A DNA stretch of 64,000 nt from an archaeon (lineage in GTDB: Archaea; Aenigmatarchaeota; Aenigmatarchaeia; QMZP01; JAFGSV01), in contig JANQNF010000046.1 of NCBI GenBank assembly GCA_028279705.1, positions 17,019-81,018 on the forward strand. Reading direction: 5' to 3'. Of this stretch, positions 10,111 to 60,696 are shown one piece after another. How positions within the stretch are numbered: position 1 is the stretch's first letter; every line of letters starts with the position of its first letter. The notes under the pieces were generated by a model. That model was given only the letters and a program-made list of their open reading frames with translations. It did no database searches and was not told where the DNA came from. The position numbers were made by a program, and so were the translations under genes.

Positions 10111-10148
10111 GATTTTTATTCAAATCGAAAACTACATATTTCCTTTTT

Positions 10149-11903: not shown

Positions 11904-11929
11904 GGTAGGCGTTCACACTTCTTTCCTAG

Positions 11930-12012: not shown

Positions 12013-12050
12013 ATGTGAAAATAATTATAGCACGTTATTTTAATAGGTTA

Positions 12051-12593
12051 TTACTTCTTTTCGGTCGTCTTTTCGATGACTTCGACCTTCGAATCCATGC
12101 CGAAATGCCATTTCAGTATCTCGCATGCAAACGGTGCGAACTTCCCAGGACTTTCCATAACGAGCTTCTTCAATTCTTCCACGTGCACGAATTCTATTGC
12201 CGTGATCTCGTCTTTGCCAAACGATACCTTACCGTCATATTGCAGCTTGTATATGACGCTTACCATGTTATCGTTCACGTCGCCGTAGTTCATCCGTATC
12301 TTTGCTATCTTCTCCGGCCTGGGTTCGCTTATACCCATTTCATCTTCTGCTTCTCTTTTCATGGCCTCGTCAAAGGTCTCGCCAGATTCCACGTGGCCCG
12401 AGACGGATATGTCATACACGCCTGGGTACTTGTCCCGCTTGGAGTCCCTCACCTGCAGTATGAGCTCGTCCCTACTGTTGAACACCAGTATATGAACACC
12501 TCTGTGCCACGAAGTGCTGCTGTGTACATTCTTCCTCGTGTCCCTTCCTATCACGTTGTCATCCTTGTCCACCATGTCGATAAATTCAGCCAT
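12051..12593 (-). CDS. Nudix hydrolase
   Basis: Nudix box GHVESGETFDEAMKREAEDEMGI; likely start is MAEFIDMV, because upstream ORF sequence overlaps a small Zn-ribbon gene. Confidence 0.75.
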   Translation of the reverse strand: MAEFIDMVDKDDNVIGRDTRKNVHSSTSWHRGVHILVFNSRDELILQVRDSKRDKYPGVYDISVSGHVESGETFDEAMKREAEDEMGISEPRPEKIAKIRMNYGDVNDNMVSVIYKLQYDGKVSFGKDEITAIEFVHVEELKKLVMESPGKFAPFACEILKWHFGMDSKVEVIEKTTEKK

Positions 12594-12642
12594 GTTTTGC
12601 ACTTGAATGTCGTAGAATAAAAACATAACGTAAACTGTGTGA

Positions 12643-12795
12643 TCAGTGCCCTTTCGTAGTCTGTGCAGCGCATCTCTTGCATAGGCCAAGGCTGTCGTCA
12701 AAGCAGCTGTGACAGACTATTGCGCCGCAGGCGTTGCACGTATAAGCAGGCTTTGCAATTCCCCCGCATCCAGAACAAATGCCGGGAACCTCCAT
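12643..12795 (-). CDS. small zinc-ribbon protein (50 aa, not in ORF track)
   Basis: Hand translation: MEVPGICSGCGGIAKPAYTCNACGAIVCHSCFDDSLGLCKRCAAQTTKGH; starts 2 nt after the antiporter stop. Confidence 0.4.
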   Translation of the reverse strand: MEVPGICSGCGGIAKPAYTCNACGAIVCHSCFDDSLGLCKRCAAQTTKGH

Positions 12796-12796
12796 A

Positions 12797-14149: not shown

Positions 14150-14180
14150 AACTATTTTTTACTGACCGTATATTAATGTG

Positions 14181-14654
14181 TTAGGGAAGCTTTATCCCGG
14201 AAAGAAGGTTCACGTACTTTTCAAGGCGCTTTATGTCCTTCTCAAGAATGTCAAGCGTCTTCAGAAGATAATCTCTTTCTACACCCTTGAGTTTTGATAC
14301 TTCCTTTCTCCTGTTGTCAAGGTCTGCAAGGGAACTCTCCACGCCGTTCTTCACCCTCATGGTTATGGCCTTCTTAAGTATTGTAAGAAGATCACCGTCA
14401 AGCTGGATGTAAAGCTTCCTGTCGCTTGCCTTCTTCGTCTTCTTTATGACACCAAGCACTTCAAGAAGGTCAAGGCTTAGCGATATCATGCCCGTTGAAT
14501 AGTTGGTCCTCTTGGCAACTTCCTGAAGCGATACCGGCTCTTCCTCTGCAAGCAGCGCTCCTATTATCTTCCCGTGTATGGGGGAATACCCAAGCATTCC
14601 CGCAAGTTCTGAGAATATGGAGAATACCCCGTCCCCGACGTCTTTTTCGCTCAT
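14181..14654 (-). CDS. winged-helix transcriptional regulator
   Basis: HTH segment VSLQEVAKRTNYSTGMISLSLDLLEVLGVI; start placed at MSEKDV; divergent from radical SAM gene across an AT-rich TATA-containing spacer. Confidence 0.55.
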   Translation of the reverse strand: MSEKDVGDGVFSIFSELAGMLGYSPIHGKIIGALLAEEEPVSLQEVAKRTNYSTGMISLSLDLLEVLGVIKKTKKASDRKLYIQLDGDLLTILKKAITMRVKNGVESSLADLDNRRKEVSKLKGVERDYLLKTLDILEKDIKRLEKYVNLLSGIKLP

Positions 14655-14734
14655 GATGCACCAATTATTTATATATGTTAGAATAATTCTAATTATATAT
14701 TTAAAACTTTTAAAATCTATTAAAAGTTGATAGC

Positions 14735-16324
14735 ATGGCAGCAAAGAAAAAGCACATAACCGACACGGGATCCATATGCCCCGAATGTCTCGCCATACTC
14801 AAGGCAGAGATATTCGAGCGCGATGGTAAGGTCTGGATAAGCAAGACATGCAAGAAGCACGGCACTACCGAGGAGCTCTACTGGGGTTCTGCTGAAATGT
14901 ACAACAAGGCCAAGAAGTTTGCGCATGACGGCAAAGGCATCGAAAACCCAAGCGTCGGCAAGAAGAACCCGGTCTGCCCAAAAGACTGTGGTCTCTGCAA
15001 CATGCACAAATCCCACACAGCGCTTGCAAACGTCGTGCTCACAAACCGCTGCGACCTCAGCTGCTGGTACTGCTTCTTCTATGCAAAGAGGATGGGCTAC
15101 GTCTACGAGCCGACGAAAAAGGAAATTGACGAGATGGTAAGGACGCTTGTAAACGAGAAACCCGTAGCATGTAACGCCGTGCAACTTACCGGAGGCGAGC
15201 CTACGCTAAGGGAAGATCTCATCGACATAATCAACATATGCAAAAAGCACAACCTCGACCACGTCCAGCTAAACACCAACGGCCTGAAGCTTTCAAAGGA
15301 CCTGGCACTCATGAAAAAGGTCAGGGAGGCGGGAGTAAACACGCTTTACCTCAGCTTCGACGGCGTTACCCCAAAGACCAACCCGAAGAACCACTGGGAA
15401 ATACCCGGGGTACTCGACAACTGCAGGAAGGCAGGTGAAATGGGTGCAGTGCTTGTTCCCACTATCATTAAGGGCGTAAACGACCACGAGATAGGCGACA
15501 TGATCAGGTTCGGTTTCGACAACAACGACGTAGCAAGGGGTGTCAACTTCCAGCCGGTATCACTCGTAGGAAAGATAACAAATGCTGACAGGAAGAAGAT
15601 GAGGATAACCATACCAGACGTCATAGCCAGGATGGAAGAGCAGACAGACGGTCAGGTAGGAAAGGAAGACTTCTACCCGGTCCCGACTCCGTGGCCGTTT
15701 ACAAGGTTCGTCGAGGCAATGACAGGAAAGCCAAAATACGAGCTTTCAAGCCACTTTGCATGCGGCATGGCAACTTACGTCTTCAACGTCGACAACAAGA
15801 TGATACCAATAACCAGGTTCGTTGACGTAGAAGGTGTCATGGAATACCTAAACGAGCGTGCTGAGAACCTGGAAAAGGGCGGTAACAAGTACGTGACCAG
15901 CCTCAAGCTGCTGTTCAAGCTGGGATCATTCATAGACAAGGAAAAGGCCCCGAAAGGATTCAGCATAAAAAAGATACTCTTCAACTCCCTGATGAAGCAC
16001 AACTACAGGGCGCTTGGTGACCTTCACCACAAGTCCCTGTTCGTTGGCATAATGCACTTCCAGGACCTCTACAACTACGACATAGAGCGTGTCAAGAGGT
16101 GTACGATACACTACGCGATGTCTGATGGCAGGATTGTCCCGTTCTGCGCTTTCAACGTCATACCGGAATGGTACAGGGACAAGGACATGGAATCCCAGGG
16201 ACTTTCGTTTGATGGCTGGGAAAAGAAGACGAAAATGAAGCTCAAGGACGACATGTACAAGAGGGATGTGAAAGCACTAGAAAGCTCAGAACTCTACAAG
16301 AAGACTTACAAGAGCTTCATCTAG
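14735..16324 (+). CDS. radical SAM enzyme with N-terminal zinc ribbon (529 aa)
   Basis: CPEC...C..C ribbon; radical-SAM cluster motif LTNRCDLSCWYCF; glycine-rich SAM motif QLTGGEPTL. Family assignment uncertain; tetraether-synthase-like is only one possibility. Confidence 0.75.
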   Translation: MAAKKKHITDTGSICPECLAILKAEIFERDGKVWISKTCKKHGTTEELYWGSAEMYNKAKKFAHDGKGIENPSVGKKNPVCPKDCGLCNMHKSHTALANVVLTNRCDLSCWYCFFYAKRMGYVYEPTKKEIDEMVRTLVNEKPVACNAVQLTGGEPTLREDLIDIINICKKHNLDHVQLNTNGLKLSKDLALMKKVREAGVNTLYLSFDGVTPKTNPKNHWEIPGVLDNCRKAGEMGAVLVPTIIKGVNDHEIGDMIRFGFDNNDVARGVNFQPVSLVGKITNADRKKMRITIPDVIARMEEQTDGQVGKEDFYPVPTPWPFTRFVEAMTGKPKYELSSHFACGMATYVFNVDNKMIPITRFVDVEGVMEYLNERAENLEKGGNKYVTSLKLLFKLGSFIDKEKAPKGFSIKKILFNSLMKHNYRALGDLHHKSLFVGIMHFQDLYNYDIERVKRCTIHYAMSDGRIVPFCAFNVIPEWYRDKDMESQGLSFDGWEKKTKMKLKDDMYKRDVKALESSELYKKTYKSFI

Positions 16325-16734
16325 AACACTTTCTTTCCACACGAAACGCAGTCATCCCTGTGGACGCACACTACGCCGCCGCAGTTCCTGCACTTCCATC
16401 TCGACTTTTCCTTCCTGACAAATTCCCTTATTCCGAGCTTCCTGATATTCTCAAGATTCTCAATCATGCCCATATGGTACTTGTCGCGGTAGCGCTTGTC
16501 GAGGTTCTTTATCCTTGCGCATGGGAATTTCTCACAGAATGAGCAGAATTTCTTTCTTTTACCCTTGAGCATCTCGCACCCTTTTATCGCGCATTTCCTG
16601 CAGTAGTTTGGCTTTCCAGCATCCATGCCATTGCATCCGACACATTTGTTCTTGTCTCTTTGGTATGAGATGCACAATGCACAGTTCATGCCACATGGTG
16701 CAATAAGAACAGACTTTATGGTGACACCTTTCAT
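16321..16734 (-). CDS. Cys-rich DUF3795-like protein
   Basis: 137 aa with about 20 Cys in CxxC/CxC patterns; paralogous to 23563..24009. Confidence 0.55.
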   Translation of the reverse strand: MKGVTIKSVLIAPCGMNCALCISYQRDKNKCVGCNGMDAGKPNYCRKCAIKGCEMLKGKRKKFCSFCEKFPCARIKNLDKRYRDKYHMGMIENLENIRKLGIREFVRKEKSRWKCRNCGGVVCVHRDDCVSCGKKVF

Positions 16735-16771
16735 ATTCTGTTATTTGTCAGCGGATGTTCTAAAAAGAGAC

Positions 16772-16975
16772 TCACTTTACCCACAGGCAGTACTTGCCCT
16801 TCTTCGTTATCTGTAGGTGCTGTGCAACTTCTGAGCCATTTGGATCGTTTATGAATGCCACGCCCTTCCAGGAGTGTGAGAAGTTTTTCTCGCTGCACTG
16901 TGGGCACTGGTCGCCTTCAACAAAAAGCTTGCAGTTCCTGCACACCTTTGCTCTCTGGTCCTTCATGATTGACAC
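16772..16975 (-). CDS. spt4: transcription elongation factor Spt4 / RNA polymerase subunit E''
   Basis: 67 aa, zinc ribbon CRNC...CPQC; immediately downstream of rpoE', overlap ATGA. Confidence 0.75.
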   Translation of the reverse strand: MSIMKDQRAKVCRNCKLFVEGDQCPQCSEKNFSHSWKGVAFINDPNGSEVAQHLQITKKGKYCLWVK

Positions 16976-17545
16976 CTAGCCCTCAGCCTTTGCAGCTTTC
17001 TTTTTTTGCCTTGCCTTGTTTTCCTTCAGCCAGTCAAGAGTCCCAAGGTTTGGCTGCCTTGCAGTAAGTCCTATCTTGTAGTCGCTTCCTGCAACTGAAA
17101 CTGAAATTATCCTCGCTCGCACGACATCGCCTTCCTTCATCCTCTGCTTGCTTTCCTTGCCCATGAAGATCGCGTTCTTCCTGTCGAAGTTCACAAAGTC
17201 GTCCATAAGCTGGCTTACGTGCACCATGCCGTCAACAGGTCCAAGTCTTAGGAAAACACCGAATTCGGTCACGTCTATTATCTCACCTTCAACGATCTCG
17301 TGCTGGTTCGGCTTGTATACAAGGACTTCAAATTCCACAGGGTAGTGGATAGAGCCGTCGCCTGCATATATCCTGCCCTCGCCGGTGTTCTTCACGTTTG
17401 TGACAACCAAAACGACGCCAAGCCTCTTGTCTATGACACCGTCCCACCTGTCCATGAGGCTCTGCTTTACTGCTTCCTCGAGTCCCAGTTCGAACTTTGA
17501 AGGCTGGACCTTTATTTCATCTTCAACTTGGATTATCTTGTACAT
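16976..17545 (-). CDS. rpoE: DNA-directed RNA polymerase subunit E' (Rpo7)
   Basis: N-terminal Rpb7-like domain and S1 domain (GDVVRARIISVS); conserved rpoE-spt4 operon. Confidence 0.85.
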   Translation of the reverse strand: MYKIIQVEDEIKVQPSKFELGLEEAVKQSLMDRWDGVIDKRLGVVLVVTNVKNTGEGRIYAGDGSIHYPVEFEVLVYKPNQHEIVEGEIIDVTEFGVFLRLGPVDGMVHVSQLMDDFVNFDRKNAIFMGKESKQRMKEGDVVRARIISVSVAGSDYKIGLTARQPNLGTLDWLKENKARQKKKAAKAEG

Positions 17546-17748
17546 AACCTAAACACCAATCACTTACAATGTTTATTGCATTAATTATATAAGTAATTAC
17601 CTGTTCAATGGAATAACTATATGGAAGCATGCAAATAAAAATATATGCCTCCATTCCATTCTCCACTGAACATGATGCACAGTTAATGATTTAACTGTGG
17701 AAGTCAATAATATAACGGAATTACCGTCATTCCACTATAGGTGTTTTA
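17546..17748. promoter_or_regulatory. candidate replication origin (ORB-like inverted repeats around an AT-rich core) upstream of orc1/cdc6
   Basis: Inverted TTCCAyTATAG / TCCACTG elements (ggaataactatatggaag, cattctccactgaac, gtcattccactatagg) flank gcaaataaaaatatatgcc; adjacent to orc1. Confidence 0.4.
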
Positions 17749-18798
17749 ATGTCGTACCCGGAGATGAGTATAATACGGGACATACGCGTCCTGACCGAGA
17801 AATTCATACCAAACAGGATACTCCACAGGACAGGCCAGCTTGAAGCAATAAGAGACGACATAAAGCCTCTTCTTGAGGGCAGCGTCCCGCGCCACGTATT
17901 CATACACGGAAATCCTGGCACGGGAAAGACGTGCATGGCAAGGTATGTCGCAGGGGAGCTTGAATCATACAGTTCCGACATAGTCCAAAGCTACACAAAC
18001 TGCTGGGAGAACCCAAGCAGGTTCAGGATACTCTACAACATTGCAAAGGACGTTAGCAGCGCACCGATAATACACAGGAAAGGCACGCCCACAGACGAAA
18101 TACTCGAGATGATAAAAAGAAGCCTCGAAGGCAAGCACTGCGTCGTCATACTCGACGAAGTTGACAAGATAGAGGACGACCGCGTCCTCTATGATCTCAT
18201 AACGCTGCAGAACGTTTGCATGCTCATGATAGCCAATTCCTCAACTGCCCTCTACAACGTCGACTCGAGGATACGAAGCAGGCTGGCATCTTCGGACAAC
18301 ATAGAATTCCGTCCATATAGCAGCAGTGAAATAATCGACATATTAAGCGACAGGTCAGAATGGGGGCTCATACCAGGGGTCATAACTGGACAGCAGATAG
18401 AAATGATTGCCGCAAGCGTGTCTGGAGATTGCCGTGCTGCAATAGATATCATGAGGGTTGTTTCAGAAGAGGCTGAACGAAGCGAACATGAAAAGATAAC
18501 AGACGACATGATAGAAAGATCTCTCCCAAGGATCGAGATGTTCAAAAAGGAATTGAGCATGGGAGCACTCAATCCCCACCAGAAGCTCATAATGGAGATA
18601 GTCACCGGCGCAGGCGGTACGATAGATTCAGGAGAACTCTTCAGGAAACTTTCGGAACTTTCCGCTAGCAAAGGCATGGAAAGCATAGTGGACAGGACGT
18701 TTCGAAACTACACTAACAAGCTCGTCAAGTACTCCTTTTTGAATTCTTCCGGTGACGGCCGCTGGAGGACTTTCGCCCTTCCAAAAAAGCAGTTCTAG
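17749..18798 (+). CDS. orc1: Orc1/Cdc6 replication initiator
   Basis: Walker A GNPGTGKT, Walker B VVILDEVD, C-terminal winged helix. Confidence 0.9.
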   Translation: MSYPEMSIIRDIRVLTEKFIPNRILHRTGQLEAIRDDIKPLLEGSVPRHVFIHGNPGTGKTCMARYVAGELESYSSDIVQSYTNCWENPSRFRILYNIAKDVSSAPIIHRKGTPTDEILEMIKRSLEGKHCVVILDEVDKIEDDRVLYDLITLQNVCMLMIANSSTALYNVDSRIRSRLASSDNIEFRPYSSSEIIDILSDRSEWGLIPGVITGQQIEMIAASVSGDCRAAIDIMRVVSEEAERSEHEKITDDMIERSLPRIEMFKKELSMGALNPHQKLIMEIVTGAGGTIDSGELFRKLSELSASKGMESIVDRTFRNYTNKLVKYSFLNSSGDGRWRTFALPKKQF

Positions 18799-18859
18799 CG
18801 GAATAGCGGAAAGCTGCCCTTCCGTTTTCTTTATAACCGGTTTTTGAGAAGCACTTATT

Positions 18860-19828
18860 GTGAGCAAGACTCAAAATGGTGAAAAAATGCAATATCCTGC
18901 AATTGCCCAAAGGTTCCTCCAAGGCGTCAATGACGGGAGGGGATACCTCGAAATATCCCCTTCCGAAGACTGCCGTCTGAGTGACTGCGTAAATGACGCA
19001 AGATCGCTTGAAATCGAGCTGAAATCAAGAGGTTTCAGCAAAAAGACTGTGAAGTCCTACCTTTACTATAACGCAGACTTTCTCAGGTTCGTTGGAAAGA
19101 GCGCAGGTGAGGCTACGGAAGAGGACGTCAAGAACTACATGGCATTCCTCATCGAGAACAGGAGCGCGTCGACTGCAAGCCTCGCCCTCGCAGCGATACG
19201 GTTTTTTTCAAAAAGAGTGCTGATGAAGGACTTTGAGCATATAAATAACCCAAAACGCGAGACTAAGCTTCCAGACATACTCACAAGGGACGAGGTCAGA
19301 AAGATGATAGAAATGACATCAAACATCAAGCACAAGATACTCCTTGAACTTCTTTACGGGTGTGGATTGAGGGTTTCTGAGGTAGTAAACCTCAGAATCA
19401 CTGACGTTAGCGTGCACGAACGTGTCATACACGTTCGTAATGGTAAAGGCGGGAAAGACAGGATGGTGCCGCTTCCAAGACTTACTGCACAGAAGCTTGA
19501 ATTCTTCATGAAAGTAAGGGACGAGAACAATCCCTATCTCATACCATCCGCAAGGGGAGGTAAGATAACCACAAAGACCGTCTATCTCGTGGTAAAACAA
19601 TCTGCTGAGAGAGCCAGGGTAAGAAAGAACGTCCACCCGCACACGCTGAGGCATTCGTTCGCTACACACCTTCTCGAAAACGGACATGACATCAGGGTCA
19701 TTCAAAAGCTTCTTGGTCACGCTGACATAAAGACGACCCAGATATACACTCACATCTCAAGAGATTTCCTAAGGAATGTCACAAGCCCGCTTGACAGCAC
19801 GTTGTACGAAGGGGGCGCTTTGAGATGA
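18860..19828 (+). CDS. xerA: tyrosine recombinase XerA
   Basis: RHS..THLLENGHDIRVIQKLLGH..TQIYTH catalytic motifs with tyrosine. Confidence 0.88.
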   Translation: MSKTQNGEKMQYPAIAQRFLQGVNDGRGYLEISPSEDCRLSDCVNDARSLEIELKSRGFSKKTVKSYLYYNADFLRFVGKSAGEATEEDVKNYMAFLIENRSASTASLALAAIRFFSKRVLMKDFEHINNPKRETKLPDILTRDEVRKMIEMTSNIKHKILLELLYGCGLRVSEVVNLRITDVSVHERVIHVRNGKGGKDRMVPLPRLTAQKLEFFMKVRDENNPYLIPSARGGKITTKTVYLVVKQSAERARVRKNVHPHTLRHSFATHLLENGHDIRVIQKLLGHADIKTTQIYTHISRDFLRNVTSPLDSTLYEGGALR

Positions 19829-20380
19829 TATCTTTATTTTCAAGACTAGCTGAGAGGGTAAAGTACGGTGAATACTCAAAAACACCCGAATTCGCCATAT
19901 CAAGAAGCTACCGGAAATGGGACAATATGCTCAGAAACCTGAATGCACTTCCACAAGAAGCGCATTAACGGAATTTTACTTCCGATAACGCATGTTATAT
20001 TCAATCGAGAAAAGGCAAACCTTAAATTTGGTGAAAACCAATTATTGATTAATGTGTGTGAATTTACCAGTTTGGGCCGAACCGATAGTTTTATTCGCGG
20101 CTCCGTTGATAGTATTGGTTTTGTATATTGTCCTTACAAGAACTGGCACGGTTAAGCTGGAAGATAGGAAAAAATTGAAGATATTCAGTATAATATTTGC
20201 GATTATACTTACTTGGGTATCTTTCTCTTTTAGTTTCATGTGGCTTTGTTGATACTCCTGCCTTTTCTCGACTTCGTCGCTTCGCTCCGACCAAAGGGAA
20301 CATAACATACGCTAACAGGCTTTGGTTATTCCTGCTCTGCCCAAATTCCGATGTGTATCCCTCTGTCCATAAGCGGGCTT

Positions 20381-44210: not shown

Positions 44211-45290
44211 TCACTTAAGCAGTGCATTCATCATGTTCAGCACTTTTGGCTGTATGTAATGGTTTATCGTGACGTTGTAACTCTCTTTCCATTCATTATC
44301 CTTCTTTGAGAACCGCTTGTGGCCAAGCCTTGCAGCAAGGAACCTGTAGAATTCCAAAAGCTCCTTCTTGTCAACTTCATCGTGCATCGATATGAACTCT
44401 TTTGCCTTCTCGGTAGCGTAATATGACCTTACTATATGGGGATAGAACGCATGGCCGCAGTACCTGTCGAACGCTTTCTTGAATTGTGCGTCGCTCAGCG
44501 GGTGGCCGGTCTTCTGGTTCACGAAAACGAAATCAGTTGGTTTCCTGTCAGAGAGTACATTCTTTAGCCTTTTCATATACGACGGCGGAAAGTCCTCAGT
44601 GAATTCCCTCGGTACCCCGCCTTTTGATATGTACTTGAAAGTGACGGAGTTCCCCTTCAGCCTCATGTCCTTTTTCTTAAGAGTCGTAAGCCCCTTGCTT
44701 CCGTGCGCCTTGTAATACATCTCGTTGCCCACCCTCATATGGGTCTTAAGGAGCGTGTACATGGCAAGCGCCATGTCATCATTCGGGTTGTCTAGCGCCT
44801 TTGTCACCTTGGCATCGATCTCCGGGTAAAGCTTCCCAAAAAGTTCCACTTCCTTGTACTTCTTCTTTACGGACTTTTCCTTCTTGTCGAGCGTGTAGCA
44901 GTACGAATAAGTACCCCCGGGGTTCCTGTAAAGCACGTCCCAGTGCGTGTTCGATGCTTCGTCGTGTATGGTCAGGTGGTCAGAAAACAATGAAAACGCC
45001 TTGTCTATCTTCCTGTTGTCGGGAAGCACGTTTATCCTCGCGCCCTGGCACTTGCCGTCCGGGGAAAGCTGCCCCTTCAGAAAATGCATGTCATTTGCGT
45101 CTATAAGAACACTGAAGTTGCTGTATGCCTTGTAAAGCTCTATAACGTGAATGGCACCCGGAAACACCCTCTCAGAAAGCTTCCATCCAGAAGAAGTCTT
45201 CTCGTAAGGCTTCAGGTCCTTGACTTTTATCCGTATCGTCCCGTTAGGAATAGTTTTCTTCTTGCTTGAAACAGGCTTTTTCTTCGTCAC
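44211..45290 (-). CDS. topIB: type IB DNA topoisomerase
   Basis: LKTHMRVGNEMY (RxGNE) and active-site region SYNVTINHYIQPKV, similar to GTSKLNYLDPRI. Confidence 0.7.
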   Translation of the reverse strand: MTKKKPVSSKKKTIPNGTIRIKVKDLKPYEKTSSGWKLSERVFPGAIHVIELYKAYSNFSVLIDANDMHFLKGQLSPDGKCQGARINVLPDNRKIDKAFSLFSDHLTIHDEASNTHWDVLYRNPGGTYSYCYTLDKKEKSVKKKYKEVELFGKLYPEIDAKVTKALDNPNDDMALAMYTLLKTHMRVGNEMYYKAHGSKGLTTLKKKDMRLKGNSVTFKYISKGGVPREFTEDFPPSYMKRLKNVLSDRKPTDFVFVNQKTGHPLSDAQFKKAFDRYCGHAFYPHIVRSYYATEKAKEFISMHDEVDKKELLEFYRFLAARLGHKRFSKKDNEWKESYNVTINHYIQPKVLNMMNALLK

Positions 45291-50245: not shown

Positions 50246-50797
50246 TCACCAGGGTTCCTTTTTCACTTTGATCTTGTATGCTATCACACATGCCGTGATG
50301 TGGAATATGGGTGTCAGCACCGCCATTAAGATGAACCATTCTATCCTAACGATGGTGATTATGGATGCAAAAAGCATTGCACCTACAAGAAAGTCCAGCT
50401 GGTCCATCACCGGTGCCTTCTGCCCCCTCTCAAGCTTCAGCCGCCTCTTGATGAAAGAACCTGCAGAATCGCCTGCCATGGCACCGAGCCCCAGCATGAA
50501 ACCAAGTGCAGGCCCCATTGGTGCAAGCACAAGCGCTACTTCGGAAAGCTCCCATGGAAGGTAGGGAAACGCAAGCATCTCCACAATGCCTATCAGGGTG
50601 CCAATTAGAGCCCCATAAATGAGCCCTTCTATGCTTTTTCCAGGCCCGAGTATTGGACGTCCGTCTATGAAATTCCTGCCAAAATCAAGCCGTTTTTTGC
50701 CCCTGAAGAGCGGTACGAGGCCGTTAGCCGCGTACGCCGGCAGTATCAGCCAGGTGGCTTCCACGAGAATGTAGATGTTGAAAATGTCAACGATCAT
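50246..50797 (-). CDS. carS: CDP-archaeol synthase
   Basis: DUF46 profile FIDGRPILGPGKSIEG, AGDSAGSFIKRR; 5 TM. Confidence 0.85.
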   Translation of the reverse strand: MIVDIFNIYILVEATWLILPAYAANGLVPLFRGKKRLDFGRNFIDGRPILGPGKSIEGLIYGALIGTLIGIVEMLAFPYLPWELSEVALVLAPMGPALGFMLGLGAMAGDSAGSFIKRRLKLERGQKAPVMDQLDFLVGAMLFASIITIVRIEWFILMAVLTPIFHITACVIAYKIKVKKEPW

Positions 50798-51769: not shown

Positions 51770-52315
51770 TCATTCACACTTGATTTCCCTTTCTTCCAGA
51801 ACAGATAATGCAGTATCTCTGAACTTCCCTATTCCAAGTTCATTTTTATGGTGCCGTGATATCACATTGTTGAGATCTTCCTCAGTGAATTGGATTTTTT
51901 CAATCAGAACTTTGGCGTCCGCGTTTTCCTCTTCACTTTTCTTTAACCTGTACTTGTAGAAGTCGTATGCATTATTGAGACCTTCTCGCGGATGGGCAAA
52001 ATTTGCCACTCTTGAAAGTCCACTTTTTCCTGGTTTGCACGTGATGTTGTTTCCGAGTTTGGTACTCTCGAGTTCTCTGATGAAGTATTTCTTTTCAGGG
52101 TCATTGTAAGGGAGTATCCTCCAGAGAATGGAAATGTCGTCCTTGGTCACGTTGTCGATTACGCCACTTTCCCTTAGGTCAGTGAAATACGCCATTGTCG
52201 ACGTTTCGAGTATAAGTTCATTCGACTTCCATCCACGCGCATTTGAAGTTTCCTTGAAATTCACGTATTCGCAGAACAGGTTGTGTACCTGCTTGTTGTA
52301 CAGATATTTTCCCAT
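51770..52315 (-). CDS. hypothetical protein
   Basis: 181-aa ORF. Confidence 0.4.
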   Translation of the reverse strand: MGKYLYNKQVHNLFCEYVNFKETSNARGWKSNELILETSTMAYFTDLRESGVIDNVTKDDISILWRILPYNDPEKKYFIRELESTKLGNNITCKPGKSGLSRVANFAHPREGLNNAYDFYKYRLKKSEEENADAKVLIEKIQFTEEDLNNVISRHHKNELGIGKFRDTALSVLEEREIKCE

Positions 52316-52417: not shown

Positions 52418-52681
52418 TTAATCGGCAGGTCCGGACTGTAACTTCTTGATAGCTTTTGAGAAGTAATCAAACGCACTTCCCTTTTCGGTAGCATGCAATT
52501 TACTTCCCAAGTTGGCAATGGCATTTACGGTGTAATCCACATCGGGACGATTTTTTATGAAAATTGATGCAAGTTTTTCCCCGCGATCGTCGGGGATTAC
52601 TGTGTATTTTTTCATATCAGCTATCTCTTCTTTGAAATCCGTGTATACCTCAAGCAATGGTGTATTTATCATGACAAACAT
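52418..52681 (-). CDS. hypothetical protein
   Basis: 87-aa ORF. Confidence 0.3.
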   Translation of the reverse strand: MFVMINTPLLEVYTDFKEEIADMKKYTVIPDDRGEKLASIFIKNRPDVDYTVNAIANLGSKLHATEKGSAFDYFSKAIKKLQSGPAD

Positions 52682-52779: not shown

Positions 52780-55700
52780 TCAGTCCTTTGAGAGATTGAC
52801 CTTCCGCGACACTTCAAAATCCTTTATGATGCATACGGTGGAGTCCGGTGCAATCTCTGCGACCTTTTTCATCTCTTCGGGCGAGAGTATCTTTCCTTCT
52901 ATCTTCAGTACGTCCTTTACCCCAAGCCTGCTGCTTGGAAGGTTCGTCACCATGCTGACTATCGAATTGGGATAGCCCTTCCTGACTCCAAGCACTTCAA
53001 GCACTTCGTATGCCTTGTTCGACGGCAGGTGGTCTATCACCGTGCCGTTCTCGATCTTTGCGATCTTGTATTCCCTTTCCATTCCAGATAACCTCCAGTA
53101 TTCTTTCAATTCTCTTGCCTCCATTTTCGGCTTTTTGAGAAGAGCATCAGCGAATGCCTCTATGAGGGACATCTGCGTGAATATGGGAACCCCAAGAGTC
53201 GCAAGTTCCCTTCTTATTTCACTGTCGTCACCGGCATCTATCAGAACGTCTGGTTTGGTACCGTCATACTCTGTCATGACATTGAAACCCGCCTTCTTGA
53301 GTTTTTCCGCAACGCCTCTTCCCACATTGTTGAGAAGCACGTTGCCGCCGATCCTAAATCCGGACTCTGTCGCGATCATGGATTTGATGAGGGCCTCTTC
53401 GAAAGTTGTTCCCATGCATGCGATTTCTCCAGTGGAGACCATCTCGACCCCGAGTTTTGGGTCTATTCCCTTGAACCTTGCCCATGAGAACATCGGAAAC
53501 TTTACTGAATAGGTCTTGAGGTGGTTTGTCACAAGTCCCCTCGGGAGAGGCTCGCCCGTCATGCACCTCGTCGCGGTCTTTATCAGGTTTATCCCAGCGC
53601 TCTTGCTCGTGTAAGGCATGGACCTCGATGCCCTGAGGTTGCATTCGATGACGTATATCCTCTCACCCTTGACCATGTACTGGATGTTGAACGGGCCCTT
53701 TATTCCAAGTTCCCTCGATATCTTTTCGGTGTAATCATAAATCCTCTCCTTGACACCCTCGCTTATCGATACGGGAGGAATCACCATGCTTGCATCACCG
53801 CTATGGACGCCAGCTGGTTCTATGTGCTCCATCACTGCCCCTATGAAAGCGTTCCTGCCGTCACCGACGCCGTCGACTTCCACTTCCTTTGCGCCCGTTA
53901 TGAACTTCGACACGACGACCGGGTAATCCCTTGAAAGGCTTACTGCGCCTGACAGGTATTCCTTGAGTTCGCTCTCGTTCCTGGCAACCTTCATTGCAGA
54001 CCCCGAAAGCACGTATGACGGCCTTATGATGACAGGATAGCCGATCTTTTCGACAAAGCTTTTGACACCTTTCATTGTCGTGAATGAATCCCATTCGGGC
54101 TGTGCGATCGAAAGCCTGTCAAGCATTGACGAGAACTTGTGCCTGTCTTCTGCCGAGTCTATGTCCCTTCCTGTGGTTCCAAAAAGCGTCACACCCCTCT
54201 TGCTCAGCGAATATGCAAGGTTATTTGAAGTCTGGCCGCCGACGGATACTATCGCACCAAGCGGCTTTTCCTTGTCTATTATGTCCATCATGCGCTCAAG
54301 GCTCAACTCCTCGAAATATAACTTGTCGCTCATGTCGTAGTCAGTGGAGACCGTTTCAGGGTTGCAGTTTGCAACAACCGTCGTATAGCCCTTCTTCTTC
54401 AGTTCCCACACGCAGTTCATCGTGCACCAGTCGAACTCTACACTTGATCCTATCCTTATAGGTCCTGCGCCTATTACGAGCATCTCTCCCTTTTCAGAGA
54501 AGTCTATGTCGTCAAACGAGCCGTTGTATGTCATGTACAGGTAGTTGGTCTTCGCAGGATACTCTGCTGCAAGGGTGTCTATCTGCTTTACAACCGGAAG
54601 TATACCGTAATGCTTTCGTAGCGTCCTTACCCTCTCCGGTGCGACACCCATGCATTCTGCTATCTTGTTGTCAGAGAACCCGATCTTTTTGGCTTCAACG
54701 AGTTCATCCTTGAAACCATCGTCTGAAAAGCGGACTTTATTGAGCTTTTCGTGCATGTCCGTGATGTTTTTTATCTTGTAGAGGAACCATCTGTCTATGC
54801 CGCTTATGTCATGTATCTCATCGACCGTCATGCCCATCCTGAACGCGTCTGCGACGGCAAACAGCCTCTGGTCAGTCGGTGACTTGAGTTCTTCCTTGAT
54901 CTTCTCAGTATCTTCGAATACGGGACTGTCTTCTGTGACCTCCCTTCCTATCTCAAGCATGCGTATGGCCTTCTGTATCACTTCCTCGAAGTTCCTGCCG
55001 ATTGCCATGACCTCGCCGATAGCCTTCATCTGCGAGCCGAGATTCGGATCCACTCCCGGGAATTTTCGCGCCTCCCACCGCGGCACCTTGACTACGATGT
55101 AATCGAGAGCCGGTTCAAAGCACGTTGACGTCACCTGCGTTATCTTGTTCGACACCTGCGGCAGCGTATATCCGACGGAAAGCTTTGCCGCAACGTATGC
55201 GAGCGGATAGCCGGTCGCTTTTGATGCGAGCGCCGAGGACCTCGAAAGCCTTGCGTTCACCTCGATTATGCAGTGTTCAAGCTTGTTTGGATTGAGCGCA
55301 AACTGTATGTTGCATTCACCAACGATCCCAAGCTCACGTATGACGTTTATCGAGACCTTTCTGAGATAATGATATTCCGTGTCAGACAGCGTCTGGCTCG
55401 GCGCGACGACTATGCTGTCGCCCGTGTGGACGCCCATGGGGTCGAAATTCTCCATGCAGCACACCGTTATGCAGTTGTCGTCCTTGTCCCTCATAACCTC
55501 GTATTCGACCTCTTTCCAGTGGTGTAGGTACTTCTCGATGAGCACCTGGTTTATCATGGAGTGTTCGAGACCCTTTTTCACGACCTGTTCAAGTTCATTT
55601 TCATTCCATGCAATTCCTGACCCAAGTCCGCCAAGTATGTATGCTGGCCTTACCATGATGGGGTAGCCGATTTCTGTAGCAGCTTTTCTTGACTCGTCTA

Positions 55701-56154
55701 TTGAATTGCACGATATGCTCTGCGCGACGTCTCCGCCGGCCTTCTCGACAGCTTCCTTGAACCTCTCCCTGTCTTCAGACCTCATTATGGATTCGACAGG
55801 AGTGCCGAGAACTCTCACCCCGTACTTCCTGAGAACGCCTTCCTCGTAAAGCTTAACGCCCATGTTGAGCGCGGTCTGGCCGCCAAAACCAAGGAGTATG
55901 CCGTCAGGTCTTTCCTTCTTTATGATCTTTTCCATGAACTCAAGCGTTATCGGCTCCATGTACACCTTGTCCGCAAGATCGTGCGAGGTCTGTATGGTTG
56001 CAACGTTCGGATTGACGAGTACTGTCTCGATACCCTCTTCTTTTAGCGCCTTCAGTGCCTGGGAACCGCTGTAGTCGAACTCTGCCGCCTGTCCTATCCT
56101 TATGCCGCCTGACCCTATTATCAGCACTTTCCGGACGGACTTGTCTGCGCTCAT
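52780..56154 (-). CDS. carB: carbamoyl-phosphate synthase large subunit with an extra C-terminal PyrI-like allosteric domain
   Basis: Two ATP-grasp halves and an MGS-like domain. The last ~100 aa (KIAKIENGTVIDHLPSNKAYEVLEVLG...NLPSSRLGVKDVLKIEG...STVCIIKDFEV) match the N-terminal allosteric domain of aspartate carbamoyltransferase regulatory chain PyrI; no zinc domain. Confidence 0.9.
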   Translation of the reverse strand: MSADKSVRKVLIIGSGGIRIGQAAEFDYSGSQALKALKEEGIETVLVNPNVATIQTSHDLADKVYMEPITLEFMEKIIKKERPDGILLGFGGQTALNMGVKLYEEGVLRKYGVRVLGTPVESIMRSEDRERFKEAVEKAGGDVAQSISCNSIDESRKAATEIGYPIMVRPAYILGGLGSGIAWNENELEQVVKKGLEHSMINQVLIEKYLHHWKEVEYEVMRDKDDNCITVCCMENFDPMGVHTGDSIVVAPSQTLSDTEYHYLRKVSINVIRELGIVGECNIQFALNPNKLEHCIIEVNARLSRSSALASKATGYPLAYVAAKLSVGYTLPQVSNKITQVTSTCFEPALDYIVVKVPRWEARKFPGVDPNLGSQMKAIGEVMAIGRNFEEVIQKAIRMLEIGREVTEDSPVFEDTEKIKEELKSPTDQRLFAVADAFRMGMTVDEIHDISGIDRWFLYKIKNITDMHEKLNKVRFSDDGFKDELVEAKKIGFSDNKIAECMGVAPERVRTLRKHYGILPVVKQIDTLAAEYPAKTNYLYMTYNGSFDDIDFSEKGEMLVIGAGPIRIGSSVEFDWCTMNCVWELKKKGYTTVVANCNPETVSTDYDMSDKLYFEELSLERMMDIIDKEKPLGAIVSVGGQTSNNLAYSLSKRGVTLFGTTGRDIDSAEDRHKFSSMLDRLSIAQPEWDSFTTMKGVKSFVEKIGYPVIIRPSYVLSGSAMKVARNESELKEYLSGAVSLSRDYPVVVSKFITGAKEVEVDGVGDGRNAFIGAVMEHIEPAGVHSGDASMVIPPVSISEGVKERIYDYTEKISRELGIKGPFNIQYMVKGERIYVIECNLRASRSMPYTSKSAGINLIKTATRCMTGEPLPRGLVTNHLKTYSVKFPMFSWARFKGIDPKLGVEMVSTGEIACMGTTFEEALIKSMIATESGFRIGGNVLLNNVGRGVAEKLKKAGFNVMTEYDGTKPDVLIDAGDDSEIRRELATLGVPIFTQMSLIEAFADALLKKPKMEARELKEYWRLSGMEREYKIAKIENGTVIDHLPSNKAYEVLEVLGVRKGYPNSIVSMVTNLPSSRLGVKDVLKIEGKILSPEEMKKVAEIAPDSTVCIIKDFEVSRKVNLSKD

Positions 56155-57260
56155 TTCGACCTCTCCACCATTTTCATGAACTTGTCAAAAAGGTACCCCG
56201 TATCCACAGGGCCAGGTCTTGCCTCGGGATGGTACTGCACGCCAAACACCGGAAGCTTCTTGTGCTCTATTCCTTCCACTGTCCCGTCGTTGACGTTTAC
56301 AAAGCTTATGTCGACGTCCTTGTCCTTTACGGACTCCGGGCTGATAGTGAACCCGTGGTTCTGGCTTGTGATGTAGCACTTCCCGGTACTCTTCTCCATC
56401 ACAGGATGGTTCTGCCCCCTGTGGCCGAACTTCAGCTTGTATGTGTCACAGCCAAGGGAAAGCCCTATTATCTGGTTTCCAAGGCATATGCCCATAACCG
56501 GAAGCTTGTACTCGATGAGATCGCTGACCGTCTTTATGGTCTTTATTGCCATCTTCGGGTCACCGGGACCGTTTGATATGAATATGCCGTCAGGCGAGAG
56601 GTCCATTATCTTTTTCGTGCTGTATTCGGCAGGGACCCGTGTCACGCTGGCTCCGCGCAAAAGAAGCGACTGGGAAATGCCCGCTTTCATCCCGCAGTCT
56701 ATTATCACGATCCTCTTTCCCTTTCCGGGGTACGTCACCGGCCGGTTTATCGATACCTCGGTCACAAGGTTTCTTTCGTTTGGGTCCTCTGCAGTCTTTG
56801 CAGCGTTGAGAATCTCTGAAACGTCTATTGGGTTTTCAGACACCTCGAGTGCGCCAAGCATGGTCCCCTCATTCCTGAGCACCTTCGTAAGCTCTCTTGT
56901 GTCTATTCCTTCTATTCCGGGTATCCCGCCTGACTTCAGCCACGTGTCAACGTCCATCGTGGACGTGTAATGTGATGGTCCCCTGCAGAGTTCATAGATT
57001 GCATAGCCCTGTATCTTGGGGCCGTCCGACTCAAACTCCTGCCTGCTGACGCCGTAGTTTCCTATGAGAGGATAAGTCTGGGCGAGTATCTGCCCGGTGT
57101 ACGATGGGTCCGTCACAGACTGCGTGTATCCCATCATGCCTGTGTTGAAAACAACTTCTCCGGTTATCTTGCCGGTAGCGCCAAAGCCCTTTCCATGCCA
57201 GACCGATCCGTCGCGGAGTGCGAGCGCTGCATGAAGAATACGTGTGTTATTTTTTTGCAT
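56151..57260 (-). CDS. carA: carbamoyl-phosphate synthase small subunit (glutaminase)
   Basis: GICLGNQ catalytic Cys; HPE; 4-nt overlap with carB. Confidence 0.9.
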   Translation of the reverse strand: MQKNNTRILHAALALRDGSVWHGKGFGATGKITGEVVFNTGMMGYTQSVTDPSYTGQILAQTYPLIGNYGVSRQEFESDGPKIQGYAIYELCRGPSHYTSTMDVDTWLKSGGIPGIEGIDTRELTKVLRNEGTMLGALEVSENPIDVSEILNAAKTAEDPNERNLVTEVSINRPVTYPGKGKRIVIIDCGMKAGISQSLLLRGASVTRVPAEYSTKKIMDLSPDGIFISNGPGDPKMAIKTIKTVSDLIEYKLPVMGICLGNQIIGLSLGCDTYKLKFGHRGQNHPVMEKSTGKCYITSQNHGFTISPESVKDKDVDISFVNVNDGTVEGIEHKKLPVFGVQYHPEARPGPVDTGYLFDKFMKMVERSK

Positions 57261-57393
57261 TTGTTTTCTTTCCAGTGTTTTGGTCACCTTCAAAAAGACC
57301 CTGCACTATTTAAGGAATGTCTGATATTTAAACATTCCTCTACTGGCGTAGATATATGGATTTTATTTAAGCCGTCACTGCCATAAAAATGAT

Positions 57394-58025: not shown

Positions 58026-59405
58026 CTAGAAGTAGATGTCCCGTTCGCCTTTCTCTATCCGTGAAAGGCGCTCTTCTGTCTCAACTCTCACTTTCTCTTT
58101 GTCTATATTTTCCAGGTATTTTGATATTATCTTCTCACCGAGCTTCTTGACCTGCGGTGACGCGTAATCTTCCAGATACTCCTTGAAAGTAAGAAGCGCG
58201 TTCGGCCTGCACAGATGGTGTATGTTACCGGGTTTTGCAAGATCCATGAACGCTTTTCCTGTCCTTTCTTCCCTGTAGCATGCCGTGCAGAAGCTTGGAA
58301 GCAGCCCCTGCTTCAATATGCTCAGCATGACGTCGTCAAGGGACCTGTGGTCGGAAAGGTCAAACTGCGAAAGCCCGCTGTCCTTTGTGTACCCGCCAGG
58401 AGACGTCCTTGAAGCAGCAGATGTCTGCGATATCCCAACCTTGAATGCCTTGGCCCTGAGATCGGGACTTTCCCTGGTTGAAATTATCATGCCGGTGTAT
58501 GGCACAGCCATTCTGAGTATCGCGATTATCTTCAGCAGTTCGTAGTCTGAAATGTTTACAAGCGGCTTGTTCCATTCAACCGTTTCCGAAGGCTGCCACC
58601 TCGGCACCGAGAACGTGTGCGGACCGACCCCGTACGTACTGTCGAGATACTGCGCGTGCGAAACAAGTGCCATCACCTCGAACCTGTAATCGTATAAGCC
58701 AAAGAGTACGCCAAGACCCACGTCGTCAATGCCCGCCTCAAAAGCCCTGTCATGTGCGAAAAGCTGCCTTTCATAATCAGCCTTTGGTCCGCAGTGAAGC
58801 TTCTCGTAGGTTTCCCTGTGGTAAGTCTCCTGGAAGAGCTGGTATGTGCCTATTCCCACTTCCTTGAGCTTCTTGTAATCTTCCACGCTGGTTGCGGCCA
58901 CGTTGACGTTGACGCGCCTTATCTCACCCTTTCTGATCTTGGTATCATAAATCGTCTTGATGGAATCCACTATGTAGTCTATGTCATTGTTCACCGGGTC
59001 CTCACCGAACTCAACAAGGAGCCTCTTGTGCCCCATCTTCTCAAGCGTTTTCACCTGGCTTCTTATCTCGTCCTGGGTAAGCTTCTTTCTAGGTGCATTG
59101 TTTCTCTTGTGAAAGCCGCAGTATTCGCAGTCGTTGACACAGTGGCTGGAAACGTAAAGCGGTGCAAAAAACACCATCCTCTCCCCGTATATCTTCTCCT
59201 TTATCTTTGCCGCAGTCTCAAGCATCCTGTCAACGAAGTTTGGGTGGTCGGCATTTAGAAGGTATGCTACCTCCTCAAGAGAAAGTCCCTTCATCCTGAG
59301 CGCCTTGTTCAGTATCTCGTGTATCTTCCCAGGCGGCCTTGATTTTGTCCTCTCAAGCGCCTTCTCTATCTCCATCACGTTTACGATTTCCTCTGCTTTT
59401 GGCAT
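58026..59405 (-). CDS. hydG: HydG-like radical SAM tyrosine lyase (ThiH/HydG family with C-terminal auxiliary-cluster motif)
   Basis: LYVSSHCVNDCEYCGF cluster motif; C-terminal FCTACYR followed 22 residues later by Cys (CX2CX22C), a HydG feature absent from ThiH. Confidence 0.8.
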   Translation of the reverse strand: MPKAEEIVNVMEIEKALERTKSRPPGKIHEILNKALRMKGLSLEEVAYLLNADHPNFVDRMLETAAKIKEKIYGERMVFFAPLYVSSHCVNDCEYCGFHKRNNAPRKKLTQDEIRSQVKTLEKMGHKRLLVEFGEDPVNNDIDYIVDSIKTIYDTKIRKGEIRRVNVNVAATSVEDYKKLKEVGIGTYQLFQETYHRETYEKLHCGPKADYERQLFAHDRAFEAGIDDVGLGVLFGLYDYRFEVMALVSHAQYLDSTYGVGPHTFSVPRWQPSETVEWNKPLVNISDYELLKIIAILRMAVPYTGMIISTRESPDLRAKAFKVGISQTSAASRTSPGGYTKDSGLSQFDLSDHRSLDDVMLSILKQGLLPSFCTACYREERTGKAFMDLAKPGNIHHLCRPNALLTFKEYLEDYASPQVKKLGEKIISKYLENIDKEKVRVETEERLSRIEKGERDIYF

Positions 59406-59409
59406 ATTA

Positions 59410-60696
59410 TCACAATCCTAAATCCGTCGGTGCCCTTCCCAGTGAATATAACAATTCGATAGTATCATTTATATTCTCTTCGGTCTTTTTGTCGTTTCCT
59501 GCCTTACCAGGGTATATCCTGTAAAGGTCCCTGTATTTTGAAGGAGTTATGTTTATCATAAGCGAATTCCCCCCGGACATAAGACCCTTCTTCTTTGCAC
59601 CCTTATCGACAGTCTCAAGCGCAGTCGTTACAAGTATCTTTGACTTCCTGTCCATGAACCGGGCAAGCGCCGTTGCCTTCAGGACCCTGTCCACGTCAGG
59701 CTTACTCTCACTTTGAAGCGGCGTCCCGTCAGTTGGTATGAACGGCCCAAAGGAATACATGTCCGCGCCAAGTTCTTTTGTCAGCAGTATGTTGTTGACA
59801 AGGTCCTCGTTTGTCTCACCTGGAAGTCCCGTAAGAAAGCCCGTCGCAACGACGTATCCCATGTCGTTTAAATCGCGTATCAGCTGCACCCTGTCCTCGA
59901 GTTTCGTTCCAGGTCTCAGTTTCTCAAACAGATCTTTATTTGAAGTCTCAAACCTGAGGAGCGCAGCCCTCGCGCCGGCATCATAAAGCCTTTTGTAAGT
60001 TTCCTTTGGCCTCATTCCTATGCTGACGAATATGAGAACGTCAAGCCTTCTCACTTCCCTTACAATCCTTTCAAGCTTTTCGTCATCATACCACGGGTCC
60101 TCGCCCGACTGCAACACAAGCGCCTTGAATCCCAGTTCCTTTGAAGCGTGCCTGGCAGCATCTATGATCTCTTCTGGTGTCATCCTGTATCTTTTGACGC
60201 TGCTGCCCTTTCTTATTCCGCAGTACATGCAGTCCTGCGTGCAGTAATTGGAGAACTCAAGTATCCCGTGGACGCAGCATGCGTTGTCGTGGTCCTTCTG
60301 CCTTACGTTGTTTGCAGTCTCCATTATCAGCTTGATGTCTTCCCCGTCGTCCGTCCCTAACAGTTCGAGCGCGTCCTTTTTGCCAAGTTCCTGGTTCCTG
60401 TTCACCTTCTGGAGTATTTGCAGTATGTTACCTGAAGCGTCGGCATTTTCGTGTATTTTGGACGTAGTGCGGTCTAACTCCTTCAGCTCGAAGAACTTCT
60501 CCTTCCACGCTTCAAGGATTTCGACAGCTTCCTTTTCCGGTATCTTGCTTATCAGCACGCCGCCCTGTGCGTACACGTATTCGCCTTTCCGGACATCGGC
60601 AAAGTCGCAGAGGACGTTCCTCTTTTCGCCGAAGTAGTCCACGACAGCGACGCCGTCCTTGACTTCAGCGACCCTTCCAGGAATAGCGTAGCACAT
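59410..60696 (-). CDS. hydE: fusion: HypC/HupF-like N-terminal domain + HydE-like radical SAM enzyme
   Basis: N-terminus MCYAIPGRVAEV...GEYVYAQGGVLISKIPEKEAVEILEAW (HypC signature MC-x-AIPG and OB-fold tail); core NYCTQDCMYCG, KRYRMTPEEI, VLQSGEDP, GLPGET, GPFIP, YRDLYRIYPGK (HydE-type). Confidence 0.8.
   Translation of the reverse strand: MCYAIPGRVAEVKDGVAVVDYFGEKRNVLCDFADVRKGEYVYAQGGVLISKIPEKEAVEILEAWKEKFFELKELDRTTSKIHENADASGNILQILQKVNRNQELGKKDALELLGTDDGEDIKLIMETANNVRQKDHDNACCVHGILEFSNYCTQDCMYCGIRKGSSVKRYRMTPEEIIDAARHASKELGFKALVLQSGEDPWYDDEKLERIVREVRRLDVLIFVSIGMRPKETYKRLYDAGARAALLRFETSNKDLFEKLRPGTKLEDRVQLIRDLNDMGYVVATGFLTGLPGETNEDLVNNILLTKELGADMYSFGPFIPTDGTPLQSESKPDVDRVLKATALARFMDRKSKILVTTALETVDKGAKKKGLMSGGNSLMINITPSKYRDLYRIYPGKAGNDKKTEENINDTIELLYSLGRAPTDLGL

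Follow-up and report, generated by a model that had tools for sequence, protein, structure and literature searches.

Aspartate transcarbamoylase (ATCase) with its regulatory subunit PyrI is the textbook example of allosteric feedback, and carbamoyl-phosphate synthase (CPSase) is a textbook multi-effector enzyme at the branch point of arginine and pyrimidine synthesis. In a 64,000-nucleotide stretch of contig JANQNF010000046.1 from an archaeon of the Aenigmatarchaeota (assembly GCA_028279705.1, positions 17,019 to 81,018; the whole stretch is called the window below), the gene encoding the CPSase subunit CarB continues in frame into a segment encoding the allosteric domain of PyrI (PyrI_N, PF01948). 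This carB-pyrI_N gene, its product and its relatives in other genomes are the subject of the present analysis.

Regarding ATCase, the PyrI of class B enzymes belongs to the same PF01948 family and fold as the CarB tail (template modelling (TM) score ~0.8, root-mean-square deviation (rmsd) 1.1-1.8 Å) and has the same nucleotide-site residues, but it also has a Cys4 zinc domain (PF02748) that docks onto PyrB and that the CarB tail lacks. PyrI goes with PyrB, whereas the PyrI_N module described here occurs on or beside CarB and contains a 'YPNS' insertion. Fused PyrB-PyrI ATCases (NF009916; 'fused' class B, PMC6022934) likewise carry the PyrI module at the C-terminus of the regulated enzyme; however, their partner is ATCase and their PyrI is complete with its zinc domain, while here CPSase is joined to the allosteric domain alone. 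The NF009916 model scored the fusion protein at 30 bits against a cutoff of 800, and the OTCace domains (PF02729/PF00185) were not matched.

Regarding CPSase, the MGS-like domain of the E. coli enzyme (UMP, IMP and ornithine) and of human CPS1 (N-acetylglutamate) occupies the same C-terminal place, and a remnant of it, together with the terminal helix, is kept in the protein encoded in the window. Compared with E. coli CarB, a second and unrelated ferredoxin-like nucleotide-binding domain has been added after this MGS-like remnant. The CPSase II of CAD and the Bacillus PyrAA/PyrAB enzyme place pyrimidine-nucleotide feedback at the CPSase step, as the present protein may do by analogy, but they sense UTP, UMP or phosphoribosyl pyrophosphate (PRPP) by the MGS-like domain itself and without a PyrI-type domain.

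The first-pass annotation of the window, made from the letters alone, was not aware of any description of this architecture, and none was found in the searchable literature, although the fusion is present unremarked in public databases. A 2018 review of carbamoyl-phosphate enzymes lists only ATCase-regulatory and CAD fusions (PMC6022934). CarB-PyrI_N is a new and apparently undescribed domain architecture. Public records name the fusion proteins plain CarB, with the exception of two C-terminal fragments (MCG2816310.1 and MFH2042785.1) that, because of the PyrI_N tail, are named 'aspartate carbamoyltransferase regulatory subunit, partial'.

Domain content of the CarB-PyrI_N protein

The span in which the first-pass annotation placed a PyrI-like extension of CarB (52780-53135) corresponds to residues ~1007-1124 and the stop codon. 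A single frame does run from the CarB body into the tail, with neither stop nor frameshift in the 1124-amino acid (aa) open reading frame (ORF), and the peptide quoted in that annotation is found exactly. The protein passes the CarB equivalog thresholds of TIGR01369 (1446.4 bits, cutoff 1027) and NF003671 (1325.7 bits, cutoff 599), and Pfam places the oligomerisation domain PF02787 at residues 421-501, between the duplicated PF25596/PF02786 halves. In the full-length AlphaFold 2 (AF2) model (mean predicted local distance difference test (pLDDT) 86.8, predicted TM-score 0.85) a reduced alpha/beta MGS remnant is visible, residues 1036-1120 of the tail fold as beta-alpha-beta-beta-alpha-beta-beta, and linker residues 1023-1035 are of low confidence, with pLDDT below 50 at 1026-1028.

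The end of the native CarB had been placed at '...ALLKK', which is too early: the native sequence runs on through PKMEARELKEYWRLSG, which aligns with the C-terminus of human CPS1 and of canonical archaeal CarBs. Since the KPKMEARELKEYWRLS linker is the native CarB C-terminal segment in the CPS1 alignment, the PyrI_N module is, by this alignment, attached at the natural CarB end. The native C-terminal segment and linker are 78-94% identical between species, and the linker motif 'YWRLSGM' occurs in 30 of 35 clusters of fused proteins.

The proposed homology of the tail to the PyrI allosteric domain was borne out by both domain and fold searches. PF01948 matched residues 1030-1121 with E 1.2e-25 and 90 bits (gathering cutoff 25), covering positions 2-92 of the 93 in the profile, and the closest solved chains by sequence were Sulfolobus PyrI (1pg5_B/2be9, E 4e-21), M. 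jannaschii 2yww and E. coli PyrI. A model of the tail alone (pLDDT 87.8) retrieved only ATCase regulatory chains at Foldseek PDB ranks 1-23, with query-normalised TM scores (TMq) up to 0.80 and a best rmsd of 1.1-1.2 Å, while PII and ACT folds appeared only at E > 0.02. The PyrI equivalog model TIGR00240 aligned over the N-terminal 93 of its 150 positions and missed its threshold (90.7 bits, cutoff 148.55). The polypeptide ends three residues beyond the PF01948 match and has no PF02748, and tblastn with two PyrI zinc domains found none across the window, in agreement with the reported absence of the Cys4 domain; nor does a downstream ORF supply it, as had also been stated, the ORFs at 52418..52681 and 51770..52315 being without Pfam matches. 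Apart from its incomplete PF02142 domain the protein is a true CarB, and it is neither a PyrI nor a PyrB-PyrI fusion.

The E. coli PyrI residues D19, H20, K56, K60, T82, N84 and K94 are taken here to be the contacts of CTP and ATP. On alignment to E. coli PyrI, the equivalents of D19, H20, K56, K60 and K94 were each present in 38/38 CPSase-associated modules, the T82 position was T or S in all 38, and the N84 position was N in 35. The corresponding residues of the predicted nucleotide site in the window protein are D1041, H1042, K1080, K1084, T1106, C1108 and K1118. The tail gave ratios of nonsynonymous to synonymous substitution (dN/dS, Nei-Gojobori) of 0.10-0.16 and the catalytic core gave 0.05-0.09, dS being close to saturation; the tail is therefore under purifying selection. 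Between species, the tail is 72-76% identical at the aa level vs 49-53% for the MGS-like remnant, which is the fastest-evolving part of the protein.

The gain of PyrI_N coincides with reduction of the native allosteric domain. PF02142 was matched in 0/38 PyrI_N-associated CarBs (35 fused and three split, see below) vs 80/82 of the next-best CarBs; CarB profile models lose alignment near model position 985 of 1052, and human CPS1 aligns to both ends of the MGS-like region of the window protein with a gap of ~43 residues between them. The numbering of the E. coli CarB sequence used for comparison was checked against a PDB alignment and published residue identities. Against this sequence, 43 of the positions 937-1055 face gaps in the window protein, and 42-46 of them are gone in every sampled fused or split CarB, so that the remnant is about one third smaller in residues. 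The positions K954, T977 and K993 are deleted in 10/10 sampled fused and split CarBs and the N1015 position is D, whereas 6-7 of 8 canonical archaeal relatives have K, T, K and N there; a T or S still occupies the T1042 position. Experiments have shown that UMP inhibition and binding depend on Thr977 and Lys993, and Thr1042 belongs to the ornithine site (PMC6245113). As judged from these alignments, the native nucleotide pocket is removed in exactly the proteins that gained PyrI_N. The first-pass annotation had offered two options, a PyrI module additional to the MGS-domain effectors or one replacing them, and this removal favours replacement.

Distribution, split forms and descent

Searching the full-length protein against 5.8 billion proteins (clustered at 90% identity) revealed at least 35 clusters of full-length fusions of 1111-1133 aa from NCBI, JGI, ENA and Logan, all with PF01948 and 59-82% identical to the window protein. 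An identical copy of the 1124-aa protein itself (P0162; L and P numbers denote loci and proteins of this analysis) is on record in NCBI, and another comes from the independent assembly of reads by Logan (SRR20820740, 39-kb contig). When GTDB species genomes were scanned for the junction, five further archaeal metagenome-assembled genomes (MAGs) proved to have it in frame, three of them with complete ORFs of ~1122-1127 aa. The extension that the first-pass annotation suggested looking for in CarB orthologues of related genomes is thus present in at least 35 fused clusters and five GTDB MAGs. Tail-only word-index and 50%-representative searches had returned fragments only and had made the fusion appear very rare; this picture was wrong, since at 50% identity the full-length fusions fall into the clusters of ordinary CarBs, and the idea was dropped.

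The named archaeal carriers are Candidatus Aenigmarchaeota and Diapherotrites, both DPANN archaea. A bacterial subclade of nine clusters (P0181-P0185, P0187, P0189, P0190 and P0192) is nested within the archaeal fused clade; P0192, the cluster to which the two misnamed fragments belong, has 16 members from independently binned MAGs of Acidobacteriota and Candidatus Aminicenantes. Two loci, L018 (JGI 3300034378, carB 10001-13354) and L019 (JGI 3300033145, carB 10001-13351), have the fused carAB amid bacterial genes, including those encoding ECF (extracytoplasmic function) sigma-70 factors, a sigma-54 activator, a HisKA kinase, MacB/FtsX and an RND membrane-fusion protein. Because the bacterial subclade nests in the archaeal clade and the gene contexts are bacterial, these data imply an inter-domain transfer of the fused carAB operon, which the bacteria have retained, and the nesting in a neighbour-joining tree points to a direction from archaea to bacteria.

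Some individual relatives depart from the common arrangement. In the Diapherotrites MAG GCA_040755695.1 (L012) a 473-aa ORF without Pfam match (8583-10004) separates carA from the fused carB and overlaps the start of the latter, with ThyX and thymidylate kinase close by. Protein P0015 has the CarA N-terminal domain followed immediately by the final 75 residues of the CarB PyrI_N tail, an arrangement that points to a deletion variant or a chimeric assembly. The carB of L001 at first appeared to be split, but it has a single in-frame TGA, not a frameshift, and the junction is not involved. This TGA (~1035-1037) lies at a conserved Gly codon (...ARFKGIDPKLG... in the window, ...SRLN*VDPSLG... in L001) on a low-coverage metagenome contig and could reflect a sequencing error, a pseudogene or recoding.

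The module also occurs unfused. The next-best CarB matches (P0197-P0199; ~1025 aa, three species of Aenigmarchaeota) lack PF01948, and in all three of these species a 107-aa gene encoding PF01948 only directly follows carB. This gene overlaps carB by 17 bp in L008, L009, L010 and L011, lies 20 nt downstream of it in L016, and has its own ATG and Shine-Dalgarno sequence (GGAGG in L008, GAGGTG in L011). Such 107-aa genes are liable to be taken for truncated pyrI. A signature insertion, '(K/E)(E/G)YPNS(I/V)', links the two forms, its 'YPNS' being found in 34/35 fused proteins and in both split genes examined (L008, L011) vs 1/72 canonical zinc-domain PyrIs. The fused and split forms constitute a Rosetta-stone pair, and PyrI_N is evidently a partner of CPSase whether attached to it or not.

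Fused and split genes differ by a 14-nt indel between a conserved Tyr codon and the ATG. The linker of the fused genes still has a GGAGG followed 6-9 nt later by an in-frame ATG in 11/11 fused loci with the YW-R linker (the window, L001, L003-L007, L012, L013, L018 and L019), and the Met encoded in the window, Met1025, lines up with the initiator Met of the L008 and L011 split genes. This arrangement is missing from the basal fused locus L017, whose linker differs. In the window GGAGG precedes only 7/420 internal in-frame ATGs, a suggestive frequency to be read with the caveat that AGG is the dominant Arg codon. The linker sequence could be what is left of the ancestral start, or an internal start still in use that gives free PyrI_N.

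PyrI_N-only proteins evidently exist outside the CPSase context as well. An archaeal contig (L002) has three tandem stand-alone genes encoding 93-aa PF01948-only proteins (889-1170, 1251-1532 and 1561-1842), which adjoin genes of pyrophosphatase, Rpb7 and Spt4. Like the modules described here, such stand-alone proteins have PF01948 without a zinc domain, are ~93-107 aa long and have the GTVIDH and K...K pocket residues; in contrast to the CPSase-associated modules, those of L002 are not near carB and lack 'YPNS'. A further combination was seen in P0022, in which a PurS-like N-terminal domain is fused to a full-length PyrI.

The neighbour-joining tree, built from the CarB core, unites all fused and split CarBs in a single clade whose sisters are canonical CarBs labelled Aenigmatarchaeota; the split forms fall in a basal subclade along with the fused P0194 and P0195. 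A canonical sister, L015 (GCA_038998295.1), has an operon carA-carB-pyrB-pyrI of overlapping genes with a full-length pyrI. The module probably derives from the pyrI of an operon like that of the sister lineage, and a plausible route would lead from loss or relocation of pyrB through loss of the zinc domain to a pyrI_N beside carB and finally to fusion. Descent of the tail from the sister lineage's own PyrI was considered and rejected, as the identity to it is 40%, not above that to other archaeal PyrIs (46-52%).

Candidate function and alternative explanations

With moderate confidence, the tail is interpreted as a functional PyrI-type nucleotide-binding domain that would act as an allosteric sensor of CPSase and replace the deleted UMP/IMP site. 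The data behind this interpretation are the homology and fold of the tail, the conservation of its residues and the selection on it, the joint loss of the native site, the occurrence of fused and split forms and a coherent phylogeny, while which ligand binds, whether it activates or inhibits and how the signal travels are the parts that we infer. The MGS-like domain of CarB would have lost the segment that binds UMP and IMP in E. coli, and nucleotide sensing would have passed to PyrI_N, be it as a small subunit whose gene directly follows carB or as a C-terminal fusion. By analogy with ATCase, a nucleoside triphosphate (NTP; CTP, UTP or ATP) may bind the conserved pocket formed by D1041, H1042, K1080, K1084, T1106 and K1118, and the signal may pass through the conserved linker and the MGS-like remnant to the adjacent ATP site of carbamate phosphorylation. 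In E. coli CPSase this site is the one on which UMP, IMP and ornithine exert their effects. Dimerisation of PyrI_N may contribute to signalling, and internal initiation in the linker might add free PyrI_N that pairs with the tethered copy.

A broader proposal, which we put forward tentatively and consider doubtful as a whole, is that PyrI_N is an unrecognised regulatory subunit or domain of CPSase and that the allosteric control of pyrimidine synthesis passed from ATCase to CPSase in a clade centred on DPANN archaea and, by horizontal transfer, in Aminicenantes and Acidobacteriota, the sensor being transplanted and the UMP/IMP pocket deleted.

Several points weigh against an allosteric role of the tail or the history proposed for it. 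The pocket is conserved in the 38 CPSase-associated modules to the same degree as in 60 canonical PyrIs, and this equality, taken from alignment, says nothing on nucleotide identity or effect. The window copy has a Cys (C1108) at the N84 position, as do 3/60 canonical PyrIs. No interface between PyrI_N and the CarB body is inspectable in the AF2 model, in which the linker is of low confidence, and as the ATCase signal passes through the zinc domain and the interfaces between regulatory and catalytic chains (r-c), which are missing here, CPSase would need a new route of coupling. The CarB-core tree is a neighbour-joining tree without support values. Finally, neither the window nor the 10 kb around each fused or split carB yielded a pyrB or a full-length pyrI. 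Tblastn with an E. coli PyrB, followed by an Aenigmatarchaeota PyrB/PyrI probe, detected no pyrB, argF or PyrI zinc domain in the 64-kb window or the loci, Pfam found no pyr or arg genes among 20 more ORFs of the window, and the contigs of the 120 closest PyrB relatives gave no match to a fused carB and several to canonical carB.

An artefact or a decaying gene, that is, a frameshift or assembly error joining carB to a truncated pyrI, or a tail that is a degenerating remnant, is extremely improbable. One sequencing error could in principle interconvert the split and fused forms, which are separated by the 14-nt junction indel, and the relative L001 has an in-frame TGA elsewhere in carB; however, recovery of the same 1124-aa product from an independent assembly, the at least 35 diverged full-length clusters with the junction also in five GTDB species, a dN/dS of ~0.1 with invariant pocket residues, and maintenance of the fusion across the archaea-to-bacteria transfer together refute this explanation. 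Alternatively, PyrI_N might serve as a tether, heterodimerising with a canonical PyrI on PyrB and so docking CPSase to ATCase as a non-covalent CAD-like metabolon. Allosteric domains do pair as dimers of regulatory chains (r-r) in ATCase holoenzymes, and carB, pyrB and pyrI of the sister lineage stand in one overlapping operon and so are already co-expressed. Carbamoyl-phosphate channelling and physical complexes are known in archaea (PMC6022934). A tether is nonetheless rather unlikely, given the absence of pyrB and full-length pyrI from the searched surroundings of every fused or split carB and of any contig shared with the 120 PyrB relatives, and it leaves the loss of the UMP/IMP segment in the same 38 proteins unexplained; it is compatible with a sensor and the two are not mutually exclusive.

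A ligand other than an NTP (a nucleoside monophosphate, PRPP or an amino acid), with a pocket reshaped by the 'YPNS' insertion, is really a sub-variant of the sensor interpretation and appears unlikely. The CPSase-associated modules do share a signature insertion missing from canonical PyrIs, and CTP is not among the known effectors of CPSase, which are UMP, IMP, ornithine, PRPP and UTP (PMC6245113 and general knowledge), but every PyrI residue that contacts the triphosphate or the ribose is preserved, and this speaks for an NTP-like ligand. Quite unlikely, similarly, is a purely structural role, in which PyrI_N would homodimerise and replace the allosteric-domain contacts of CPSase (alpha-beta) units without any ligand. 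It is generally known that E. coli CPSase oligomerises partly via its allosteric domains, and oligomerisation is discussed in PMC6245113. PyrI_N domains dimerise intrinsically in ATCase, and roughly one third of the residues are missing from the MGS-like remnant, both of which would suit such a role. The residues D19, H20, K56, K60 and K94, which presumably lie away from the r-r interface, would however not need to be invariant in 38/38 modules for a structural purpose.

The broader proposal, if true, would provide a natural demonstration of the portability of an allosteric module between two enzymes of one pathway. The arrangement is kept in at least 38 diverged lineages, fused and split, and across a domain-level transfer, and offers a natural system for asking how portable allosteric modules are and how signals rewire into other catalytic scaffolds. 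It also bears on how nucleotide metabolism is reconstructed for DPANN archaea, a group with disputed biosynthetic capacities.

Feature coordinates and other genes of the window

The features of the carAB locus are listed in Table 1.

Table 1. Coordinates of the carA and carB-pyrI_N genes and of the parts of the fusion protein (window positions)
Feature	Position	Strand	Remarks
carB-pyrI_N fusion gene	52780..56154	minus	single ORF, 1124 codons and stop (stop codon 52780-52782)
carA, glutaminase small subunit of CPSase	56151..57293	minus	PF00988 and PF00117; 4-bp overlap with carB start
CarB catalytic core, residues 1-930	53365..56154	minus	two preATP-grasp/ATP-grasp halves and oligomerisation domain (PF25596 x2, PF02786 x2, PF02787)
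Reduced MGS-like (native allosteric) domain, residues ~931-1007	53134..53364	minus	no PF02142 match; CPS1 and E. coli alignments
Native CarB C-terminal segment and conserved linker KPKMEARELKEYWRLSGMEREY, residues 1008-1029	53068..53133	minus	aligns to CPS1 C-terminal segment
GGAGG (53092-53096, codons W1020-R1021), 9-nt spacer, in-frame ATG (Met1025, 53080-53082)	53080..53096	minus	
PyrI_N (ATCase regulatory-chain allosteric) domain, residues 1030-1121	52792..53067	minus	PF01948, E 1.2e-25

Among the other genes of the window, those encoding a CDP-archaeol synthase (50246..50797) and a Cdc6-like ATPase (17749-18798) are archaeal markers. The region 1-20000 probably contains one or more integrated elements: an integrase gene (10686-11903) abuts tRNA-Ser (11929-12012), a second one (18860-19828) adjoins the gene of the Cdc6-like ATPase, and the region also encodes a 1075-aa KAP-family P-loop NTPase (2179-5406) and has five large ORFs without Pfam matches. 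On the minus strand, two adjacent genes (58026-59405 and 59410-60696) encode radical-SAM/BATS proteins that are HydE/HydG- or BioB/ThiH-like, the second of them having an N-terminal HupF/HypC domain fused on, which is an unusual combination. A gene at 44211-45290, also on the minus strand, encodes the catalytic core of a eukaryotic-type topoisomerase IB (PF01028, E 3e-14).

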